Assembly (NCBI GenBank): GCA_964016885.1
Contig: OZ024741.1
Coordinates: forward strand, 216,442,001 to 216,506,000
DNA from: Eledone cirrhosa
Lineage: Eukaryota
Direction of reading: 5' to 3'
DNA: 64,000 bases
Position 1 is the stretch's first letter, and every line of letters begins with the position of its first letter. The notes below the pieces were generated by a model, which did no database searches, had not been told where the DNA came from, and was given only the letters and a program-made list of their open reading frames with translations. Made by a program: the position numbers and the translations under genes. Below, one piece after another: positions 15,200 through 57,938 of this stretch.

Positions 15200-16100
15200 G
15201 TGAACTTAATCCCTAAACACCAATGAAAGCGGGAAAAGCTCTGTCTTGTGGAGCCTCTGGGACTTGTACAGACTTTAAACTTGTAGTTGACTGGTGTCTT
15301 GTATTCTCAGTCACTTAGCACTAATGAAACTAATGAAATGGGATGGCACATGGCTTAGTGGTTAGAGCATCGGGCTTGCAATCGAAAGGTTGTGAGTTCA
15401 ATTCTCGGACCGGGGGGTGTGTTGTTTCCTTGAGCAAGACACTTTATTTCACTTTGTTCCAGTTTACTCAGCTGTAGAAATGAGATCATAGGACTGGGGG
15501 TCCCTATCATTAAATCACCCAAGACACCTCCAACGAGATATACCTTGGAGGATGCCAGCTAAACTTGCATAGGTTTGAGCTGTAATAACAACAACAACAA
15601 TGAAACCAGGATTAGCCCTGGCCTGATGAGGCATCAAGGCTTGGGACAGAATTCACCTCTACAATTGACTAGTATTCTGTCCAGGGGAAGCCTTGTTATT
15701 TCAGTCACTTAGCACTAATGAAACAGGAATTAGCTCTGGTCTGATGAGTTCTCAATGCTTGGGAAAGGCTTTAACCCTGCGATTGACTGGTGTCTTATCC
15801 AGGGGAAGTTATGCTCTCTCAGTCACTTAACACCAATGAAATCTGGATAAGCTTTAACCTGATGGGCCTCTGAGCTTCTGACATATTTTAAACCTACAAC
15901 TGACTCATGTCCTGTCCAGAGGAAGCCTTGTTCTCTCAGTTACTTAACACCAATAAAACCAGGATAAGCTCTGGTCTTGGAACAGACTTCAAACCTGTAA
16001 TGGACCGGCGTCCATTCAGGGGGGTGACTTGTACTCTCAATCATTTAACACAAATGAAATGGGGGTATGCTCTGGAGTGATGAGGCTCTGGAATTGTGAC
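15200..16100 (+). repeat. diverged ~120-bp tandem repeat resembling a V-SINE-like central domain
   Basis: About 6 units of cctgcgattgactggtgtc.tgtccaggggaag..ctcagtcacttaacaccaatgaaaccaggataagctctggtctgatgag, interrupted by a SINE head at 15341. Confidence 0.7.
15341..15485 (+). mobile_element. tRNA-derived SINE (family 2) 5' part
   Basis: A box TGGCTTAGTGG, B box GAGTTCAATTC and ccttgagcaagacactttatttcac core. A diverged copy lies on the minus strand at ~41745-41875. Confidence 0.75.
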
Positions 16101-20153: not shown

Positions 20154-20198
20154 AGTCATAGTTCTTTCGTCACACACTCTGTGACCTCTTCAGTGACT
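20154..20198 (-). ncRNA. minimal type I hammerhead in inverted pLTR
   Basis: Reverse complement of 24522-24566. Confidence 0.8.
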
Positions 20199-20398
20199 GG
20201 GGATTCCTTTCTTTGTTTCTGTGCCTCTCCTTTGTTCTGTCCTACGCCATTTTGTTTCTGTGTGTGTGTTGTGTGCTCAGTCTGCGCATGCGCCACATCC
20301 GGGTGTCTGTGTGTGTTTATGTTCATTTATTTATTTGTTTATTTACATGTTACTGGTTGGTTGTTTGTTCTATGTGTGTGTGTGTTTTCATTTTGTCC

Positions 20399-21133
20399 TT
20401 AATTGTAAGTTGTGATGTTGCTGTTCCACTCATATTTTCTATTTAATTTTGGTTGTAATTCTTTTATGTTTATTGCCTCTGTAATTTGTCTAAACATTGC
20501 GTCTTTTCTGTGTGTAGATTCTATTTTTATTTCTATGTTCTCTAATTTACTCTTGTGTTCTATTTTAGCATGCTGGTAGAGTACAGATGATTCTTTATTA
20601 TCTTGAAGGTCTCGCCAGTGTTCATTTATCCGTTCCCCTACACTACGAGCTGTCTCACCTATGTACACTATATTTTTGTCTCTACATTTTCCTTCAGTAC
20701 ATCTTATGCTATACACTACATTTCTAGTTTTACAGTTAATATGGGGGCTTATTTTACAGGTTATACATTTCTTATCTATACATGAGGGTCTTTGAAAAGG
20801 GTATGTCTTTCTAATAAGTGTTTTTACGGAGGTACCTGGTCTTTCTACTATCTTAATATTGAGTTTATGTTTATTTAGGGCCCTTCTAAATTTGTAAGCT
20901 AATTCACCTCTAGGGGTTGTATCGATGAACATTACACTCTGGTATTTATTGCTATCATACCATGAGTTTATTCTATTAGCCTTGTTCCTAGTTCTTTCTA
21001 TTCTATTCCAAAATTTGCTCCTATACAAGGGGCAGGTCCCATTTATGTCATTATTTACCATTTTTTCCCATTTGGTTCTGGCTCCTCTATACACTCTGAT
21101 TTTATCTCTCTGATTGTAGCCAGAGAACTGCAT
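20399..21133 (-). pseudogene. inverted copy of Penelope linker + GIY-YIG endonuclease
   Basis: 244-aa ORF nearly identical to the C-terminus of 22348-24321. Confidence 0.9.
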
Positions 21134-21136
21134 ACG

Positions 21137-24100
21137 GTGGATAGATACAAGATTGACGGTATAAATATGGCCGACACCTCATTAACAGAAGAGTTTAACA
21201 ACAACAACACAAATATATACGGTAACACAAGAATAGATAACGATGAGATGTCTGTGTTATGTTTACCCCCGAAATTTGCGACATTCAAGAAGGTAAATTT
21301 GTTTAGTTGTCTGTCAGAAATAGAAAAATCATTTACAAAACTACGCTGGAGCCTCAAAAACAAAAACAAAAACAAAAGCAACAATATACGCACACACATA
21401 TACAACACACATTCCAACAACAACAGACACATAGACACAAACAACAATAACAACAACACACACACCAACAACAACAACAATAACAACATACCCAGAAACA
21501 ACAACAACAGACACGCAGACACAAACAACAATAACAACACACACAACAACAATAACACACACGGAGACAACAACAACACACATCAACAACAGCACACATC
21601 AACAACAACAACACACACACATTCAATGCCTCTCACCACCACCACAATCTTAACAAACACACAGACACAGAAAACAAGTAATGACAGTAGCACAGAAATC
21701 ATAGAAATAAGGGAAAGTAATAGGATTAAAAAGAGAAGGGAGACTAAGACAAAGAGAATAACCAAGACGAACACACAGACACACAAAATAGGGTAGATAA
21801 CAACAATGAGCCAGTGGAAAGAGACAGGAGTAATTGTGAGAGACATAGAAACAACCATGAGGCTGTTGGTGGAAATAGAAATAGAAACAACACAACTAAC
21901 AATAACAATAGCACTAGTACACATAAAGCAGCAGCCTGGAACTCTACGTTTTATAATCCCTCCGATAAATCATTCGACCTGCGACGAGTCCACGCCACGA
22001 CTTTACCATTTAGCAAACGCAGGCAATTGCCGTCGCAGGTCGATGAACAAACAGAAGCACAATTTAGTATAGCTAGATCCGAACTTAGAAATATTATAGA
22101 ACAGTATAGCAAGAAGCATAATAGAATGGAGGCCCAGCAACTGGGAGAAAAATCTGCAAATGGCTTGCGTAAGCTCATGCAGCGCTCACGTAATGGAGAG
22201 ATAGCATGCTTTCCAACAGACAAGTCTGGCAGAATGTCGGTTGACAGCCTGCCAAACTACATCCAGGAAATGTAACCCCACATCACTAACACAATAGAGG
22301 TCACACCACAGGAGCATGAGGATAGAGAAAAAGCCCTCAATGCCCATATGGTGATGTGGACGAATATAATGCAGCCCAACAAAAGGACTGCCAACAACTT
22401 CCAGGCCTGGAACAATGACGTGCCGGCGTTGTATGGGCTTCGAAAAGACCATAAAACGGGCTGTGACCCTGTCGCGGGACCACCAACACGGCCAGTCTGT
22501 GGAGCTAACATTGATAGTAACTACAGACTGTCCTACTTCCTCTCCCTAATCATACGCCCCATCATTGATATGTCCCCAGATGTATGTGACAGCACGGAGG
22601 ACCTCCTCAGCAGAATCGGCGGGAGTAACCGATCTGGGGACCTAACAAACTGCATAATAGGCAGTATGGATGTTGTGTCCCTGTATCCATCTATTGACGT
22701 GGATTTTGCTGTGGAGAAATGCGTAGAAATGATCAGTGAGAGCAAGGTTGAGTTCCGTGGGATTGATACCAGTGAGCTGGGACTCCTACTTAAGCTTACC
22801 TATAGTAATAATTACCTAGACACATATGACCTTAGCAACCTGTGCCCTACAAGACCAGTAAGAGGCAGACCACCTACCATTACCTCAATGGCCAAGAAAA
22901 CCCACACAGATAGATGGAACGGGTGGACCAGAGCCATACGGACACCCGAAAACCACGATGAACTGAAGAAAATGATTGCACATGCGGTAGGGGCCAGCAT
23001 AAAACTAACCCTTAAGGAACATATGTTCAAATTTAATGGAAAAACATATGCCCAAGAGGAAGGAGCAGCCATTGGTGTTAGCATTGCAGGCGACATAGCT
23101 AACTTATTCATGGTATGGTGGGACAGTAGACTTAAACTTAAACTTAAAGAACAATTAGAAGACAGCTTAACCCTAATAATGTACTCCCGCTACGTAGATG
23201 ATATAAACATCGTAGTTAAGACACCCCCACTAGAGAACAGTCAAGAACTAGAGAAAAACACGATGGAAAGCATCCAGCAAATAGCAAACTCCATCCACCA
23301 GAGCATTAGAGTTACTATAGATTACCCAAGTAAACACCCCAACCATCGATTACCTGTACTAGACACAGAGCTCTGGTTAGATACCATTAACAACAAAAAA
23401 CAAATCCTCCATTCCCATTATGCCAAACCCATGACTTCCAAACATCTGATCCACCGAAACTCGGCCGTTTCGGACCATACCAAAATCAACATACTGATTG
23501 CGGATTTGGTACGGGTGATGAGAAATGTGTCCCGCATGTGCAACCTCGAAGAACTAGAGAGACACATACAACACTTCATCCACCGTATGCAGTTCTCTGG
23601 CTACAATCAGAGAGATAAAATCAGAGTGTATAGAGGAGCCAGAACCAAATGGGAAAAAATGGTAAATAATGACATAAATGGGACCTGCCCCTTGTATAGG
23701 AGCAAATTTTGGAATAGAATAGAAAGAACTAGGAACAAGGCCAATAGAATAAACTCATGGTATGATAGCAATAAATACCAGAGTGTAATGTTCATCAATA
23801 CAACCCCTAGAGGTGAATTAGCTTACAAATTTAGAAGGGCCCTAAATAAACATAAACTCAATATTAAGATAGTAGAAAGACCAGGTACCTCCGTAAAAAC
23901 ACTTATTAGCAAGACATACCCTTTTCAAAGACCCTCATGTATAGATAAGAAATGTATAACCTGTAAAATAAGCCCCCATATTAACTGTAAAACTAGAAAT
24001 GTAGCGTATAGCATAAGATGTACTGAAGGACAATGTAGAGACAAAAATATAGTGTACATAGGTGAGACAGCTCGTAGTGTAGGGGAACGGATAAATGAAC

Positions 24101-24321
24101 ACTGGCTAGACCTTCAAGATAATAAAGAATCATCTGTACTCTACCAACATGCTAAAATAGAACACAAGAGTAAATTAGAGAACATAGAAATAAAAATAGA
24201 ATCTACACACAGAAAAGACGCAATGTTTAGACAAATTACAGAGGCAATAAACATAAAAGAATTACAACCAAAATTAAATAGAAAATATGAGTGGAACAGC
24301 AACATCACAACTTACAATTAA
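21137..24321 (+). pseudogene. Penelope RT/GIY-YIG polyprotein (657-aa open part 22348-24321; upstream one TAA at 22273 and a frameshift)
   Basis: LCLPPKFA..E.E....KLRW, PTDKSGR, LYGLRKDHK, RPV, SMDVVSLYPSI, GAAIGVSI, RYVDD, LPVLD, VAYSIRC..YIGETAR...ERINEH and RQITEA..LNRKYEW. Confidence 0.93.
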
Positions 24322-24521
24322 GGACAAAATGAAAACACACACACACATAGAACAAACAACCAACCAGTAACATGTAAATAAACAAATAAATAAATGAACA
24401 TAAACACACACAGACACCCGGATGTGGCGCATGCGCAGACTGAGCACACAACACACACACAGAAACAAAATGGCGTAGGACAGAACAAAGGAGAGGCACA
24501 GAAACAAAGAAAGGAATCCCC

Positions 24522-24566
24522 AGTCACTGAAGAGGTCACAGAGTGTGTGACGAAAGAACTATGACT
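24522..24566 (+). ncRNA. minimal type I hammerhead in Penelope pLTR
   Basis: agtca-CUGAAGA-g gtcaca gagtg tgtgac-GAAA-gaac-UA-tgact. Confidence 0.85.
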
Positions 24567-24724
24567 ATATATAAACAACTATCTGGTTGTGGAACCAACC
24601 AACCAACCAGAAATTTATAAATTTATAAATTTATTATAAATTTATTATTATTTATTATAATAAATTGAAGTGAAAGCATCGGTGCGTGTGTTTCTTATTG
24701 GCAACATGACCCTCCCAAAGTATA

Positions 24725-26846: not shown

Positions 26847-26899
26847 AATAAGGGCGCTGCGGAGTTGCAAATGGGTTACATATGAAAAAAGTTTGTCCT

Positions 26900-26969
26900 T
26901 CATCAGTGATCTTCCAACCATCATAGGCATTTCATCGCTTTAAAGACCATATGCCTCCGGTTGGTGCGA
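26900..26969 (-). ncRNA. candidate permuted (pseudoknotted) hammerhead ribozyme, family A
   Basis: tcgc a ccaacc gg aggca-UA-tggtctt taaa gcga t-GAAA-tgcct atgat ggttgg aagatca-CUGAUGA. Confidence 0.65.
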
Positions 26970-27050
26970 GCAACGGCTAAAAAAAGTCGTTGGGACACGT
27001 AAATAAAGGGGACGCGAGGGTAAACAAACAAAATGGTGAAGCAACAGAAA

Positions 27051-28134: not shown

Positions 28135-28513
28135 CAGAAATAACAACACAATCGGTACAGTATATGGAAGGTATATATTAGATTAACGCTTGATATAGCA
28201 GGAAGAGGGTCTTAGCGTTTCGGATGCTAGTCCTTCATCAGAAGAAAGAATGATAAATAAAATAGAATGAGGGGACGGGCGGGTTTGAATTTGAAAAAAT
28301 GTCTTTAGATAAAAATAACAGGTTCATTCATGTTGACATCTCTTGCAAGTTGACATCTCTTGCAAAACTGTTGGTGCTGGCGTTTTGTGTATGATTTGTT
28401 TTTTTTAGAAAAGTGGATGATGGAGCGCGTCTACCTGAAATGGAAAAAAAAACCGTTTTGTAAAAAGAGCTATACTTGAGTATATACGTGCGTAAGCATG
28501 TGTTTGAGTGTGT

Positions 28514-28578
<65 letters not shown>

Positions 28579-29150
28579 TATTATAGGTCCGTACGAAGCT
28601 AAGAAGAAATGTATGTATATATGTGAGTAAAAGAGTGTGTGTGTGCATGTAAGTACGAAGCTATGAGCAAAAGTATGTTAATATAAGGGTGTGTATCGGC
28701 ATGTATTAGTAGTAAGAGAGAAGCTTCAAATGTTCGGCGAAACGGTCCGCCACACGGCGTCCCGTTTGTCCGATATATAAAGACCCGCAAAGGGAACACC
28801 GGAGGGCATAGACAACATGGGTGGATGTGCAGGCGAAGGAATGGCGGATACGGAAAGACCCGTTAGGGCCTGTAAGAGTGGTGAGGGTGGAAATAGAGGG
28901 ACAAGTGTTGCAGCGGGAACGGGAACAAGGATGAGAGCGGAGTGGAGTCGTAGGAGAGGACGAAAAAGAACTACGAACCAGGAGGTCACGGAGGTTTCGG
29001 GCGCGCTTAAAAGCAGTAATGGGTGGGTTTGGAAAAAAGCGAGAAGTGTCGGGGTCAGAAGAGGGCATACGGATGGAACGGAGGATGTGTCGCCGGAGTG
29101 GTAGGGTGATGGGATGGTAGGTGAGAGGGAAAGGAACACGGGTGAGGTGA
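28135..29150 (-). mobile_element. Penelope-like (Neptune-type) 3' fragment: GIY-YIG and pLTR with degenerate HHR
   Basis: AFKRARNLRDLLVRS..C...RC.TC..F.C.S..VVYALRC..C...YIGQTGR....RFAEH at 28706-29068. HHR remnant at 28210-28245. Confidence 0.85.
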
Positions 29151-29281
29151 GAGGGCTGTCATGCAGTCTGTTTCACGGGCGCGTTTATATATATGTGTAT
29201 ATATATATATGTATATATATATGAACATTTTCAAGACCCCGACGGCAGAGCTCAAACCGTTTCGACGGCTCACTTCCTTCG

Positions 29282-37208: not shown

Positions 37209-39018
37209 CTTTGGGAGGGTCATGTTGCCAATAAGAAACACACGCACCAGTTGCTTTCACTTCAATTTATTATATATTTATAAATTTATAAATTTACAAA
37301 TCTACAAACTTATAAATTTCTGGTTGGTTGGTTGGTTCCACAACCAGATAGTTGTTTATATATAGTCATAGTCCTTTCGTCACACACTCTGTGACCTCTT
37401 CAGTGACTGGGGATTCCTTTCTTTGTTTCCGTGCCTTTCCTTTCTTCTGTCCTACGCCATTTTGTTTCTGTGTGTGTGTTGTGTGCTCAGTTTGCGCATG
37501 CGCCACATCCGGGTGTCTGTGTGTGTTTGTGTTCATTTATCTATTTGTTTATTTATTTACATGTTGTTGGTTGGTTGTTTGTTCTATGTGTGTGTGTGTT
37601 TTCATTTTGTCCTTAATTGTAAGTTGTGATGTTGCTGTTCCACTCATATTTTCTATTTAATTTTGGTTGTAATTCTTTTATGCTTACTGCCTCTGTAATT
37701 TGCCTAAACATTGCATCTTTTCTGTGTGTGGATTCTATTTTTATTTCTATGTTCTCTAATTTACCCTTGTGTTCTATCTCAGCATGTTGGTAGAGTACAG
37801 ATGATTCTTTATTATCTTGAAGGTCTCGCCAGTGTTCATTTATCCGTTCCCCTATACTACGAGCTGTCTCACCTATGTACACTATATTTTTGTTTCTACA
37901 TTGTCCTTCAGTACATCTTATGCTATACACTACATTTCTAGTTTTACAGTTAATATGGGGGCTTATTTTACAGGTTATACATTTCTTATCTATACATGAG
38001 GGTCTTTGGAACGGGTATGTCTTGCTAATAAGTGTTTTTACGGAGGTACCTGGTCTTTCTACTATCTTAATATTGAGTTTATGTTTATTTAGGGCCCTTC
38101 TAAATTTGTAGGCTAGTTCGCCTCTAGGGGTTGTATTGATGAACATTACACTCTGGTATTTATTGTATAGATAAGAAATGTATAACCTGTAAAATAAGGC
38201 CCCATATTAACTGTAAAACTAGAAATGTAGTGTATAGCATAAGATGTACTGAAGGACAATGTAGAAACAAAAATATAGTGTACATAGGTGAGACAGCTCA
38301 TAGTATAGGGGAACGGATAAATGAACACTGGCGAGACCTTCAAGATAATAAAGAATCATCTGTACTCTACCAACATGCTGAGATAGAACACAAGGGTAAA
38401 TTAGAGAACGTAGAAATAAAAATAGAATCCACACACAGAAAAGATGCAATGTTTAGGCAAATTACAGAGGCAGTAAGCATAAAAGAATTACAACCAAAAT
38501 TAAATAGAAAATATGAGTGGAACAGCAACATCACAACTTACAATTAAGGACAAAATGAAAACACACACACACATAGAACAAACAACCAACCAACAACATG
38601 TAAATAAATAAACAAATAGATAAATGAACACAAACACACACAGACACCCGGATGTGGCGCATGCGCAAACTGAGTACACAACACACACACAGAAACAAAA
38701 TGGCGTAGGACAGAAGAAAGGAAAGGCACAGAAACAAAGAAAGGAATCCCCAGTCACTGAAGAGGTCACAGAGTGTGTGACGAAAGGACTATGACTATAT
38801 ATAAACAACTATCTGGTTGTGGAACCAACCAACCAACCAGAAATTTATAAGTTTGTAGATTTGTAAATTTATAAATTTATAAATATATAATAAATTGAAG
38901 TGAAAGCAACTGGTGCGTGTGTTTCTTATTGGCAACATGACCCTCCCAAAGTATAACAATATCGGTTTCAACACACGATTTTAGATAAAGAATCTTGCTA
39001 AACAAATTCAGAAACGAA

Positions 39019-46829: not shown

Positions 46830-49800
46830 CACTCGTTTTTCCTTGGATATCTTCAAACAACCAAATAACCAAAAACTATTAACATCCTCAAACAACCAAA
46901 CTCACATCCATAAGAGCGAAAATATATATATATACACGATTCTTTAATTTCTTCAAATAACTGAAGTCTCACTCACGTATCAAATAACAAATATCTTAAA
47001 ACGCACACAAGGATAATAATAAACAAAAAACAAAAACAAAAATATGACTACTGACCAGCAAGCCCACAACGGACGAAATTGGTCTGAAAATGAAGTTGAC
47101 CTCTTAATAAACACATGGTTTTCTCTGTCACAAACATCAAACATTAACGCGTCATGTCTGAATGAAATTGCTGAAAAAACAGCCCAAACATTTACGACGA
47201 GATCTGCTAAGCAGATACACAAGGAACTAACACATGTAGAAGTCTCTTTCAAACTAATTCAAAACCATTTTGAAAAACTTCGACATATTTACTCCAATGG
47301 GCAAACACAACAACATTAACAACAACAACAGCCACAACAACAACAACAGCCACAACAACAACAACAGCCACAACAACAACAACAGCCACAACAACAACAG
47401 CCACAACTACAACAGCCACAACAACAACAGCCACAACAACAACTACAACAGCCACAACAACAACAGCCACAACAACAACGATAGCCAGAAAGCCAGGAGC
47501 AACCACTACTGAATTCAAGCATAATCGCTGAACTACTGAATGACAGTATCACTCAGCCACTCACTCAGCCATCATTAGCGCCATCACCATCATCACCGTC
47601 ACCATCTCCTGTCACATCTACATCTTCTGCCACACCAACTGCTAGTAATGGACCACTGCTCTCTCTCCCACCACAGTTGCCATCATCATCATCATCACCA
47701 CCAATGCTTTCTTCTCCCACATCACCACCACAACCATGCCATAGTCAAAATACTGAAACCCCCAAATATGCCGCTACTCACTACGTCAGAGGCTATGCAC
47801 ACGTAGCGACTGTATATTTACCCATTTACCGGGTACTAGGCGCACTAACACTGCCAGCCATCACCAAAGCACGCTGCCTGCACGTATAGGTCACAGTCCC
47901 AAAATCTGCCAACATTCCCAACGTGAGAGGCTATGTCTGCTGACTGACTGTCCCTTCACTCATCTTCCTGGGACACAACGCCCGAACAGAAAAGGGGCTT
48001 CATGCCAACCCACAAACCACAATAAAGCCACCCCCTGCTGCGGTAATGCTGCTCCAGTCTCCTCACAAAGACATGATTACAACAAGAAAAACAACAAAAG
48101 TAATGCAGCTCCAGTCTTGTCACAAAGACACGATCACAACAACAACAAAAATAACGCTGCTCCAGTCTTTTCACAAAGACACAATTACAACAAATACAAC
48201 AACAACAACAAAAGGGAACTGCAACCCTATCCAATGTTGTAACCACAAATCCAATCAAAAACTGCTCCCTGAACAAAAGAAAAATCTTTCTTTTTTAGCC
48301 ACCACACTAGCCTCCACATTCTTACTCAATACACAAGTTATCAGCCCATCGATCAATGCACAGAAATGGAAGATCCAATTCATTGAGGATTGGATTGGTA
48401 ACCATCCATTTCACATCCCCTTCTTCATTCTTACTGAGACCCACCTTGACAACTCCCACTTGGAGGCCGAAGTAAGAGTGAGAAATTTCACAACCATTTT
48501 CCTGTATGATTCCTTTACGGCAGATGGCAACACAACATTCTCTAATGGATACTGCAAATCAGTCACTGTGCACAATAAAGCCAATGACCTGACATTAGTT
48601 GGGCTCTATAGGCCGCCACAAACACCCATAATCTGTTTTAAAGAATGCCTCAACAGTATTAAATGCTTTATTAAACAGTGCCATTCTAGCAACATACTTT
48701 TGATGGGAGACTTTAATCTACCCTGTGTCGATTGGTCTACATGTAGTTTGAAACCAGGCTCCACAGCCTCAACCACTGACAAAGAGGCTGTCGAGTCACT
48801 TCTTGACTTCATGAATGAGTTTTTCTTGTCCCAACTTGTCCTTGCACAAACGAGGCATCAGAAGAAAATTCTGGATCTAGTGTTTAGTAACCACACTAAC
48901 ACTATACATAATATTACAGTGGAAAAAACCCTTCTCTCAGACCATGACATGGTTCTTTGTAACGTGAGATTCCACCAGCCGAAAGCTAATGCCAGGGTCC
49001 TCTCTCCAGCCCACCCATTTGATAACATGGATCTCCACAATGCCAACTGGGATGCAATTATGAACGAACTATTACATGTCGACTGGTCTTTTACACACGC
49101 ACACACTTCCACCAACATCAAAACAACTTGGCAGATCTTTGTAGACACTGTCACAAATATATGTACAAAACACACCCCACCAAAACCTGTGAACAAAACC
49201 AAGTGCAGTATCACCCAAAACAGAAAAACAATTATCAGAAAAATAAAAATAACAAACAAAAAAATTAACACACTAAAATACTGCCAACAGCAACACACAC
49301 ATTCAATGGCTATCGCCCTGCTTGAGTAAAAAAAAATAACCTCCAGCAATGCATGATGACCATCATCAATAACCAGAGAATAGCTGAAGAGAGGTGGGCC
49401 ATTGAGAAAATGAAACTCAACCCAAAGTGTTCTTCTCAATCGTTAAAAAACACAAGGTCACCGTCACCACTGTTGGCCCCCTAGTTGATGAAAATGGCAC
49501 ACTCCAAAACCATGGGCGAGATACTGCAGAAACAATACTGCTCTGTTTTCAGCAACCCTGATATGGCCGATCAGGGCCGTATCAGTGATATTAACCCCCA
49601 ACACACTATATCAGACATAACGTTTGGCGCCCCTGATGTCTTAGCGGCAATAAACGAAATTAAACACAATTAAGGAGTAGGCCCGACAGGTTCCCTGCTT
49701 GTGTCCTGAAGGTGTGTCGAAGGTGTGTCCTCTTGCTAATCTGTGGAGGAACTCACTGGACACTGGCTAAATTCCTGAAAACTTTCTGTCCCAGTCCGTT

Positions 49801-50893
49801 GTCCCTTCAAAAAAGGAAATAAGTCCCTTGCAGTGAACTACCGTCCGATCTCACTCACCTCTCATATTATCAAGGTATTTGAGAGGGTGGTGAGATCACG
49901 AATAAGCCACTTTCTTGAAAGCAACGGCCTGCTGAATGCCAACCAACATGGATTCCGTAATGGAAGGGACTGCCTAACGCAGCTCCTGCATCACTTTGAT
50001 GATGTTTTGAGAGCCTTGGGGGAGGGCTCCAACACTGATGTCATCTACCTTTATTTCAGCAAGGCCTTCGACAGGGTTGATCATAAGATTCTACTGAAAA
50101 AACTATCCAATGTTGGTGTCTCTGGAAGGTTAGTAGAGTGGATCAAATGTTTCCTGACAGGCAGAACCCAGCATGTTGTAGTTGAAAGAGTAAAATCAAG
50201 CCCTGCCAAAGTCAGTAGTGGCGTCCCACAAGGCACTGTGTTGGGCCCACTTCTTTTCATCATCTACATTAATGACATTACTGACATCATCAAACACAGC
50301 AACATCAGAATCTTCGCAGATGATTCCAAGCTCCAAAGGGTCATCAATGAGGTGGGTGACCGGACTTGCCTTCAGTCAGACCTACTGGCTGTTTTCCAAT
50401 GGGCAGAGATGAATAATATGCTGTTGAATGAGGATAAATTTGAACTAATCCACTTTAGAAAAAAGGATGCCCTGAAACTACCATACTCTCTTCCTTCGGA
50501 TCAAACTCTAGTAGCTTCCAATAACATCAGAGACCTGGGAGTAATTGTGGACAACAATATAAGCTGGGCCACTCATATAAACAGCAAAGTTGATATGGCC
50601 CGCAGAATGTGTTCCTGGATTCTCAGAACTTTCCAGTCGAGAGATATCCTTCTCTTCTCCACTTTTTCCCGACCCCACCTTGAATACTGTTGTCTACTGT
50701 GGTCACCCCACACGAAACAAAGTATCAAGAAATCCCGGATAAGCCTCCTACACCCGGATATGCCTCCGTAAAGAATAACTCTCTGTTCGAGTGGGCCATG
50801 GTGCCCAAACACTGATTTGTAAGACTTCGCCAGGTGGTGCTATTAAGTTAGACATGGCCTGGGACCATGTACCAAGGACCTCACACATTTTCC

Positions 50894-50974: not shown

Positions 50975-51878
50975 CAAGTTGCTCGCACACTCTTCGGTTT
51001 GTTGTTTCCTGTTTTTTTTTTTGTTTTGTATTTTCGCTTTTTTCGCTGTTTTTCTCTTTTCTCTTTTCCATTTTCCCTTCTGTTATCCTATATTTTCTTT
51101 CCCTCTCTCTTTCGTTTTCCAAAATAACTTACCTAGTTATTGAACGCGTAGAAATATCCGCGATCCCCAGTAGACAACTGATGAAGACCCCCCCCCCCCC
51201 CACCCCCACCCGTTATTGCTTTCTTCTTATTCTTACTTTTAAGCATACCTCATCAAGCAACTATACAGCCAATCCTATTCTCCATATATTTTATCATGTT
51301 TCGCTATGACCAGTCTTCTCTCTCCTTCTACCTACCTATTTTGTTGCTATCTACTCTTCCCCCTCTTTCTTTCTCTCCCTTTCTCCCTCTCATTTTCACT
51401 CACCCTCTCTCTGATAGCAACCTCATTGTTTCCCTCGCCTGACCCTCTAGCAGTTCTTTTCTCACTCACACTCACTGGGATCAGACGTGTCTTTTCGCTC
51501 GTCCGCACGATCTAGAACTTACGCTCAGTAACGTCGTGGACTTGAATTTTCTTTCTTCAAGTTACCCGCACACTCTACGTTTTGTTATTTCCCGTTTTCT
51601 TTTTCGCTTTTTTTTTTGTTGTTGTTTTTATCTTTTCTCTTTTCTGTCTTTTTTTCCTTTCTGTTATCCTATATTTTCTTTCCCTCCCTCCTTCGTTTTC
51701 CCAATAACTTACCTAGTTATTGAACGCACTGGGGGTAGATATCTTGTCTTTAATGCGTAGAAATATCCGAGACCCCTAGCAGACAACTGATGAGGAAAAC
51801 TCGCCTCCCCTTCTTGCTTTCTTCTTATTCTTATTTTTAAGCATACCTTATCTAGCAACTACACAGCCAATCCACTTC

Positions 51879-51885
<7 letters not shown>
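50975..51885 (+). repeat. two direct copies (~310 bp) of a pLTR-like unit
   Basis: 50975-51290 and 51558-51885. The first copy has an internal deletion within the ribozyme-like motif. Confidence 0.8.
51724..51793 (+). ncRNA. candidate permuted (pseudoknotted) hammerhead ribozyme, family B
   Basis: acgc a ctggggg ta gata-UC-ttgtct ttaat gcgt a-GAAA-tatc cga ga cccctag c agacaa-CUGAUGA. Confidence 0.65.
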
Positions 51886-51911
<26 letters not shown>

Positions 51912-51918
<7 letters not shown>

Positions 51919-52180
51919 TAAACGGAATAGAAAATGCTGACAAATTGTTCACAGTTGAAAAATGGTTTAATTAGGAATAAAAGAGTATTAGTGATTGTAT
52001 GGGTTAGTATTCAGTTGTGGTTTAAAGTTTTTAAACCACAACTGAATACTAACCCATACAATCACTAATACTCTTTTATTCCTAATTAAACCATTTTTCA
52101 ACTGTGAACAATTTGTCAGCATTTTCTATTCCGTTTACCAATATATAATAACTTGTGTGTTACACCTCTATTCTTTTAAC
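51912..52180. mobile_element. asymmetric fold-back in (TA)n, perfect ~115-bp arms, no HHR seen
   Basis: 51912-52026 is the reverse complement of 52029-52145, with a right extension to 52180. Confidence 0.8.
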
Positions 52181-55627: not shown

Positions 55628-55741
55628 GTAGAAGAATCAGTGAGAATAAATAAATATATCAGCCACACGACTTTCTGACATTTTTACAAACCGCACCACA
55701 CCCATCCACCATGGAGTTCTGATTAATTTACATCCAATTTA

Positions 55742-57938
55742 TATGCTGCAGGCGTGGCTGTGTGGTTAAGGAGATGCTTCTACAACCACCCGGGTTTTGG
55801 GTTCAATCCCTTTGCGTGACATCTTGAGCGAGTTTCTTCACTTCACATGACGCAGGCGTGACTGTGTGGTTAAGGAGATGGCTCTACAACCACCCTAGTT
55901 TGGGGTTCAATCTCTGCGTTAAATCTTGAGCACGTTTCTTCATTTTGCATTCAATTTGAATGACGAAGTGATCGCTGTGTGGTTAAGGAGAGCGCTCCAT
56001 AGCCATCCGGGTTTTGACTCGGGCATGGCTGTGTGGTTAAAGAAATGGCCCCACAACCACCCGGGTTTGGGGTTCAATCCTTCTGCGTGACATCTTGAGC
56101 GAGTTTCTTCATTTTGCTTCCAATTTATATAGACGCAGGCGATAATTTGAGTGAGTTTCTTCCCTTCATATGATGCAGGCGTGGATATGTGGTTAAAGAG
56201 ATCGCTCCACAACCACGCAGGTTTGGGGTTCAATCCCCCTGCGTTACATCTTGAGCGAGTTTCTTCATTTTACATTCAATTTGTATGACGAAGTGGTGGC
56301 TGTATGGTTAAGATGATCGCTCCACAACTATTTGAGTTCGGGGTTCAATTCCCCTGTGTGACATCTTGAGCGAGTTTCTTCACTTTATATAATGCAGGCG
56401 TGGCTGTGTGGTTAAAGAGATCGCTCCACAACCACCAGAGTTTGGGGTTCAACCCCCCTGTGTGACATCTTGAGCGAGTTTCTTCATTTTGCTTCCAATT
56501 TATATAGACTTAGGCACGGCTGTGTGGTTAAAGATATCGCTCTGCAACCACCCGAGTTTGGGGTGCAATCCCCCTGCGTTACATCTTGAGCAAGTTTCTT
56601 AATTTCGCATCCAAACTATATAGACTCAGGCATGGCTGTGTGGTTAAAGATATCACTCTGCAACCACCCGAGTTTGGGGTGCAATCTCCCTGCGTTAAAT
56701 CTTGAGCAAGTTTCTTCATTTTACATACAATTTGTATGACGAAGTGGTGGCTGTGTAGTTAAGGAGATCACTCCACAACTATTTGAGTTCGAGGTTCCAT
56801 TCCCATGTGTGCGAGTTCCTTTATTTTACATTCAATTTATATGACGCAGGTGTGGCTGTGTGGTTAGGGAGATCACTCCATAACTATCTGGGTTTTGGGT
56901 TCAATCCCCTTGCGTGACATCTTGAGCAAGTTTCTTAATTATATAGACTCAGGCGTGGCTGTGTGGTTAAGGAGATCGCTCTGCAATCACTTGGATTTGT
57001 GATTCAACCCCCCTGCATTACAACTTGAGCGAGTTTCTTCATTTTATATGACGCAGGCATGCCTGTGTGGTTAAAGAGATCGCTCCATAAACACCCGGAT
57101 TTGGGGTTCAATCCCCCTGCGTTACATCTTGAGCAAGTTTCTTAATTTCGCATCCAAACTATATAGACTCAGGCATGGCTGTGTGGTTAAAGATATCGCT
57201 CTGCAACCACCCGAGTTTGGGGATCAATCTCCCTGCGTTAAATCTTGAGCAAGTTTCTTCATTTTACATACAATTTGTATGACGAAGTGGTGGCTGTGTG
57301 GTTAAGGAGATCACTCCACAACTATTTGATTTCGGGGTTCAATTCCCCTGTGTGCGAGTTTCTTTATTTTATATTCAATTTATATGACGCAGGCGTGGCT
57401 GTATGATTAAGGAGATCGCTCCATTACCATCCGGGTAATCCCCTTGCGTGACATCTTGAGCGAGTTTCTTCATTTTGCTTCCAATTTATATAGGCGCAGA
57501 CGACATTTTGAGTGAGTTTCTTCACTTTATATGGCGCAGGTGTGGCTGTGAGGTTAAGGAGACCACTCCACAATCACTTGGGTTTGGGGTTCAATCCCTC
57601 TGTGTGACATCTTGAGCGAGTTTCTTCATTTTACATCCAATTTATATGACGCAGTCGTGGCGCTGTTGTTAAGGAGGATATCGCCACAACCATTCGGGTG
57701 TTGGATTCAATCGATCCTGCATTACATCTTGAGCGAGTTTCTTCACTTTGCATCCAAACTATATAGACTCAGGTGTGGCTGTGTGGTTAAGGAGATCGCT
57801 CGGTAACAACTTAATGTATTGAGTTCAATTCTCCTGCGTGACATCTTGAGCGAGTTTATACTATAACCTCCAGTTAACCAATGCTATGTGAATGAAATTT
57901 CTTAGACGGTGACAGGGTGGAAGACCCGTCATCTATAT
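55742..57938 (+). repeat. tandem array (~19 x ~110 bp) of a tRNA-derived SINE head, ending in one SINE body
   Basis: Most units have A box TGGCTGTGTGGTTAA and B box GGTTCAATCCC. The last unit continues into a SINE-like body at 57855-57938. Confidence 0.85.

Follow-up and report, generated by a model that had tools for sequence, protein, structure and literature searches.

A hammerhead ribozyme core with its strands in the order S-G-C, and with the 5′ strand of stem II set upstream and apart from CUGAUGA, is present once per ~600-nt unit of a mobile element in the genome of Eledone cirrhosa and is likely to self-cleave after C51743 (we put this reading at roughly 0.7). The copy analysed lies in a window of 64,000 nucleotides (assembly GCA_964016885.1, contig OZ024741.1, positions 216,442,001 to 216,506,000, forward strand), and all positions refer to this window. 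The parts of the reading differ in strength: conservation of the fold is close to certain, self-cleavage at the level of the family is probable, and the chances that the aged window copy would cleave efficiently are about even. The place of the cut is predicted by analogy with hammerheads. Coordinates are collected in Table 1.

Table 1. Predicted ribozyme domain, its parts and its carrier in the 64,000-nt window.
Feature	Position	Strand	Basis
Full predicted ribozyme domain, six helices	51695..51800	+	alignment, ViennaRNA fold
Helix X, 5′ strand, closing the domain; partner 51794-51800	51695..51701	+	MFE and centroid fold
Hairpin Y, predicted to stack between helix X and stem II of the four-way junction	51702..51722	+	fold, alignment
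Stem II, 5′ strand, apart from CUGAUGA; partner 51754-51759	51723..51728	+	covariation
Bridging helix I′, 5′ strand; partner 51773-51779	51729..51735	+	covariation
Block S: stem III strand, AUC triplet, stem I strand	51738..51749	+	covariation
Block G: stem II 3′ strand, GAAA, stem III strand	51754..51767	+	sequence, covariation
3-nt bulge and GA between stem III and helix I′	51768..51772	+	alignment register
Block C, first half: stem I 3′ strand and CUGAUGA	51781..51793	+	sequence, covariation
Helix X, 3′ strand, immediately 3′ of A9	51794..51800	+	fold, alignment
Penelope-type, retrozyme-like insertion flanked by (TA)n runs; 1.5-mer of the non-coding ~600-nt unit	50975..51882	+	sequence
Upstream ribozyme copy with 29-nt deletion, cleavage block gone; predicted inactive	51114..51191	+	sequence
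Family A copy of the six-helix domain, in a 5′-truncated ~210-nt insertion between (TA)n runs	26894..26997	-	sequence, fold

Read directly from the letters, 51724-51793 holds block S, then block G, then block C, and every strand of the permuted hammerhead that the initial annotation had proposed there was found in its place. The 5′ part of the core consists of ACGCA (51724-28), CTGGGGG (51729-35), TA and GATA (51738-41). These are followed by the region of the cleavage site, with U16.1 at 51742, C17 at 51743, TTGTCT at 51744-49 and then TTAA. TGCGT (51754-58), A, GAAA (51760-63), TATC (51764-67) and CGAGA form the middle, and CCCCTAG (51773-79), C, AGACAA (51781-86) and CTGATGA (51787-93) the 3′ part. 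The equivalent of position 10.1 is 51723, in the 5′ strand of stem II, and the pair 51723/51759 of this stem is A.A in the subfamily of the window copy. A search against Rfam gave no hammerhead match, the only matches being microsatellite-driven miRNA families under the gathering score.

The 70-nt boundary of the original proposal (51724-51793) omits two further helices of the predicted domain (51695-51722 and 51794-51800), and the domain is therefore taken as 51695-51800. Unguided folding of the window copy with ViennaRNA predicted helices X, Y, I′ and III (z -3.9; 1 of 200 shuffles); stems I and II are pseudoknots, which lie beyond what ViennaRNA predicts. Among 11 aligned rows of a single clade (A3), 90.9% of 143 cells of X and Y were paired, compared with 32-55% in slid registers. 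The sequences of X and Y are unrelated between clades and families, and the two helices abut with 0-1 nt between them. X or Y was not found in register by script in 3 of 18 rows, and just 2-3 pairs of X were found in three further rows. In the modelled fold, X and Y would meet the base of stem II in a four-way junction. It could be argued that the four-helix version is the whole ribozyme and that X and Y are merely flanking structure, as the four core helices contain all catalytic nucleotides, covariation of X and Y inside A3 is modest (3 of 13 pairs, a count reached in 139 of 500 shuffles), and cleavage of SGC constructs was faster in short than in extended versions (PMC10085705, accessible text). 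We consider this unlikely: in unrelated families and in coral, crustacean-section and octopus Naiads, X begins 0-1 nt from A9 and Y ends with 0 nt left to stem II, and without X and Y there would be no link between A9 and stem II.

The 3-nt bulge and GA were in register in 17 of 18 rows. Judged from the sequence, positions 51768-72 would form a k-turn-like internal loop with 51736-37, possibly with k-turn geometry; kink-turns have a 3-nt bulge and, after it, tandem G.A and A.G pairs. The strand opposite the GA of the bulge reads GA in 5 rows, UA in 10 (including the window copy) and UC in 3; a U is tolerated at that place of the opposite strand of kink-turns. One subfamily of family B (e.g. 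G000:C1:167388542) carries additional nucleotides in this loop and begins stem II at a shifted position, yet it keeps the core.

Covariation was assessed in an alignment of 18 copies: both copies in the window, another two from family B, and 14 out of 30 loci from a search for further families, these 14 having been picked for an intact upstream part. Fourteen of the 18 rows were retrieved by a pattern fixing TAAWGCG, GAAA and CTGAYGA, so that the invariance of these motifs there is by construction. U16.1 and H17 were in no search pattern; U16.1-A15.1 was found in 17 of 18 rows, and position 17 had no G in any of the 18. Across the four core helices of these related families, 88.4% of 432 cells were paired, against 30-44% in slid registers. 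Changes on both sides were observed in 17 of 24 core pairs, a count that 0 of 500 shuffles reached, the shuffles ignoring relatedness. By helix, pairing was 87% for stem II, 83% for helix I′ and 96% for stem I (51781-86 side), with both-side changes in 3 of 6, 6 of 7 and 5 of 6 pairs, respectively (18 rows). These counts bear out the proposal that the helices keep pairing across families. The accompanying statement that all four helices differ in sequence from those of family A is not fully right for stem II, which has CGC/GCG and the TAAWGCG strand in common between the two families. Speaking against activity, 6 of 18 rows, the window copy (A.A) among them, have no standard pair beside G12, a pair usually conserved in hammerheads.

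Chance pairing within a high-copy repeat would explain such a layout if the short helices and the relatedness of the sequences, which inflates shuffle tests, had produced it. We regard this as negligible. A four-helix S-G-C descriptor matched three times in 150 locally shuffled windows, compared with two matches in the real one, at 51787 (+) and in family A at 26906 (-); the both-side changes point the same way, and the layout occurs in other phyla. Elsewhere in the window, two CTGATGA motifs lie 118 nt apart at 15600-15760 (+), each with GAAA ~20 nt upstream; the descriptor did not match there.

Arrangements with a canonical order were also considered. Helix X was rejected as a canonical stem II, its 5′ strand having no GAAA after it, and so were a stemless minimal core with the GAAA after A9 and a dimeric canonical hammerhead. 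More broadly, a hammerhead of canonical type I/III, or a minimal one working as a dimer, could form in trans between units or molecules, given that Penelope minimal hammerheads act as dimers (PMC7229834, accessible text) and that the units here are tandem. This is very improbable: the strand 3′ of CUGAUGA was unable to pair with the strand preceding GAAA in all copies compared, so that a canonical stem II is not regained whichever copies are combined, and the GAAA within the post-A9 strand is missing from families A and E and lacks a partner for stem III.

If templates end at the cut, insertions should begin upstream of it less often, and we mapped their 5′ ends on a scale on which the G of GAAA is 0 and the predicted cut falls at -17/-16. 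For family B, the first 100 of 176 matches were used. After 27 rows that were intact or carried internal deletions and a single duplicate had been dropped, 72 ends remained: 42 fell within -21 to -5, 13 over the 30 nt upstream of this zone and 17 over the 19 nt downstream of it. The zone from -21 to -5 was chosen after the family B rows had been viewed and was set beforehand for family A. The first 100 of 730 family A matches, less 9 removed, were classified by eye; of the first 30 rows, 26 were kept, and a script assigned 25 of these to the same zone. By eye, 25 ends fell in the 37 nt upstream, 33 in the 17-nt zone and 33 in the 18 nt downstream. The step from upstream to zone was thus replicated in family A (p 6e-5), whereas the excess of zone over downstream in family B (p 2e-4) was not (33 vs 33, p 0.46). 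In both families, 5′ ends were 3-6 fold rarer just upstream of the predicted cut. There was no single-base spike at the cut, -17 to -15 holding 9.8 of 82 ends, the chance level in a 25-nt window; the commonest ends lay at a TA-like -7/-6, and TA microhomology blurs the site. The step is an indirect hint of cleavage and would fit a share of the templates ending at the cut and being joined by microhomology; stalling inside the structure may be an alternative source of it.

The same data bear on whether the fold is selected but hardly, or not at all, catalytic alone, being instead a signal for binding or priming of the reverse transcriptase (RT), or needing a protein on the k-turn-like loop. Such a role would fit the broken block C, the non-standard pairs beside G12, the location of the ribozyme 50-100 nt from the 3′ end, the expected place of a mobilisation signal, and the passage of most copies through the predicted cut; in addition, cleavage failed in 8 of 9 retrozymes predicted in Xenopus (10.64898/2026.07.22.740005, accessible text). 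We nevertheless hold it to be quite improbable, as CUGAnGA, GAAA and UH are kept in place across families and phyla while the helices turn over, as nematode Naiads bear the CSG form, a tested type, of the same circle (PMC8557442 and PMC10085705, accessible parts), and as the number of 5′ ends falls off at the predicted cut.

The carrier at 50975-51882 has CTGATGA at 51178 and 51787, 609 nt apart, and its repeated arms are identical at 261 of 303 positions. The directly duplicated ~310-nt unit of the initial annotation corresponds to the overlap of a 1.5-mer, the unit itself being ~600 nt. The loss of an interval from the upstream core, also described there, is real, but the deletion extends over 29 nt (matching 51726-54) and includes the cleavage triplet. 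The insertion sits in a (TA)n run, just left of which ends an RT fragment of LINE type (49779-50771). On its right side it is adjoined by a perfect 118-bp inverted repeat with a 3-nt loop (51909-52147), and at 55727-55991 there are three ~105-nt tandem copies with tRNA-like box motifs that resemble a SINE.

Genome-wide, the exact core pattern gave 15,578 matches and a search for further families gave 343, with 0 in the control in each case. The best 40 of 3,409 family B candidates, the window itself aside, were 87-94% identical, and the best 40 family A matches 99-100%. Cores in tandem arrays are spaced 530-700 nt apart. Copies share the ribozyme end, most stopping 40-100 nt 3′ of CUGAUGA, and are 5′-truncated, tandem or 5′-inverted (inverted junctions 19 of 91). 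No coding frame was found in the ~600-nt unit. Units of families A and B aligned over 591 columns at 58% identity, and with the ribozyme left out the bodies still aligned with a score of 108, compared with at most 80 in 3 x 300 shuffles. A and B are therefore relatives, and family B is not the independent origin that had been suggested.

A Penelope-type carrier, as initially proposed, is supported by the tandem 1.5-mers, the inverted 5′ pieces, the (TA)n targets and the occurrence of the same fold at the ends of Naiads. According to the accessible parts of Craig et al. (2021, PMC8557442), Naiads prefer (TA)n targets and have no canonical hammerhead, some bearing the labels 'HHR_core' or 'HHR_half_core', and those of cephalopods are inactive remnants. 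We judged the Naiad consensus sequences of that supplement by eye, without a script, and line-wrapped motifs were missed. The 19 CTGATGA matches in the file comprised 8 in the split layout, 2 in type CSG, 2 unparsed and 7 in ORFs; the eight split-layout 3′ ends were from two octopus, three near-identical Acropora, Beroe and two other entries. X and Y were partly visible in the end from the ctenophore Beroe, and in coral, crustacean-section and octopus Naiads X follows A9 by 0-1 nt and Y precedes stem II by 0 nt (PMC8557442). The CTGACGA and CTGAAGA matches listed include at least three more of type CSG in the nematode section and several unparsed. By eye, five nematode-section ends were of type CSG, with an intact block C and the same bridging helix, and spider- and ostracod-section entries of the same supplement had the core words in unparsed arrangements, possibly further openings of the same circle.

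The mobilising partner of the unit is, in our judgement, probably a Naiad. Targeting of (TA)n, partial tandems, inverted 5′ pieces and a ribozyme layout found near several consensus 3′ ends are shared with Naiads, while the latter encode an N-terminal GIY-YIG and an RT and the ~600-nt unit has no ORF (PMC8557442, accessible parts). An intact Naiad was not found in the genome, although family A copies are 99% identical (top 40), and the adjacent Penelope ORF looked for on the suggestion of the initial annotation was absent in ribozyme orientation at the loci examined. With the window's Penelope-type proteins as queries, tblastn at the loci of the copies matched unrelated neighbours only. Naiad-like ribozyme patterns gave 1 and 4 matches in the genome, none with an ORF. 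Rare decayed copies (L121, L295, L296, L297) have a ribozyme nearer to the published octopus Naiad end than to families A and B, and no ORF nearby.

It is possible, though doubtful, that the units are mobilised instead by another Penelope clade, of the type with a C-terminal endonuclease (e.g. 22276-24321). An RT motif pattern for Naiads had 0 matches in the genome, the genome contains a Penelope-type element with a long ORF and near-identical copies, and cephalopod Naiads have been called inactive (PMC8557442). However, a single exact degenerate pattern is unable to prove absence of Naiads, the 22276-24321 element has its own canonical type I hammerhead (24527), and both the fold and the target preference match those of Naiads (PMC8557442, accessible parts). 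This element spans 21748-24600 (+), with a 681-aa frame for RT and C-terminal GIY-YIG and a canonical-order hammerhead containing CTGAAGA; it has an inverted piece near 20193-21178 (-) and copies near 37403 and 38757. A second Penelope-type fragment (GIY-YIG end) lies at 28241-29158 (-), with a canonical-order hammerhead core at 28241.

A Naiad-linked ribozyme would operate as follows. The cut after C51743 would divide multimeric transcripts into unit-length RNAs. An RT and endonuclease of Penelope type, probably from a Naiad, would then copy these RNAs and insert the copies at (TA)n, so that the model involves cleavage, circularisation and mobilisation in trans. On the simplest reading of the fold, the circle of types SGC and CSG would have a third opening, at the A9/10.1 step, a site that already has a bulged U in type-SGC RNAs (PMC10085705, accessible text). 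X would stack on Y, and together they would hold A9 to stem II in a four-way junction; stem II would stack on tandem G.A pairs as in other hammerheads, and at the k-turn-like loop the extension of stem III would bend back towards the distal ends of stems I and II. If true, the published rule of an indivisible block of CUGAUGA and stem II is broken, and if the block is divisible, the six-permutation hammerhead scheme is incomplete and descriptor searches miss a large class. Non-circular permutations would shift from environmental RNA to animal genomes, at high copy number, and there would be a direct answer to why Naiads seemed to be without the ribozyme of other Penelope-like clades.

A search of the accessible literature found no published description of a hammerhead layout with a split stem II. 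A literature search for insertions between A9 and G10.1 found no precedent, so the precedent drawn on here is that of the HRIMA-1 alignment. Hammerhead types I, II and III have the circular order C-G-S and no core pseudoknot, which S-G-C does not match. Non-LTR retrozymes resemble the present element in their non-coding tandem units, single ribozyme per unit and Penelope-like link, and circular RNA has been shown for them, but they use a type I hammerhead in a ~300-nt unit, whereas the layout here is another and the unit is ~600 nt (PMC7229834; 10.64898/2026.07.22.740005, accessible parts). In the accessible text of the retrozyme preprint of Li et al. (2026, 10.64898/2026.07.22.740005), searches used type I models only.

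The closest comparison is with types SGC and CSG, both of which cleave in vitro (Eckert et al. 2023, PMC10085705; statements on these types follow its accessible text). Type CSG, published from two metagenome sequences, is another opening of the same circle of blocks, with block C intact and no X/Y junction. With type SGC (HRIMA-1 and the SGC variant) the present fold shares the S-G-C order, the full catalytic core (CUGAnGA, GAAA and UH with stems I and III) and the pseudoknotted topology, including a short linker between stems I and II, here of 4 nt, and a helix joining the far sides of these stems (PMC10085705). In type SGC, however, the stem II strand follows CUGAUGA at a distance of 1-2 nt at most, separated in HRIMA-1 by one bulged U, and is itself followed by the strand of the bridging helix, whereas here both (51723-35) lie 5′ of block S, with X and Y, which are not a type-SGC feature, inserted at A9/10.1 (PMC10085705). 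Breakage of block C was assumed impossible by Eckert et al., and here the strand after A9 pairs with 51695-701 and block C is not intact. Type-SGC RNAs are, in that text, from metatranscriptomes only, whereas the present layout has more than 15,000 matches in an animal genome. On its sequence, we would class it as functionally like types SGC and CSG, yet outside type SGC by its block C.
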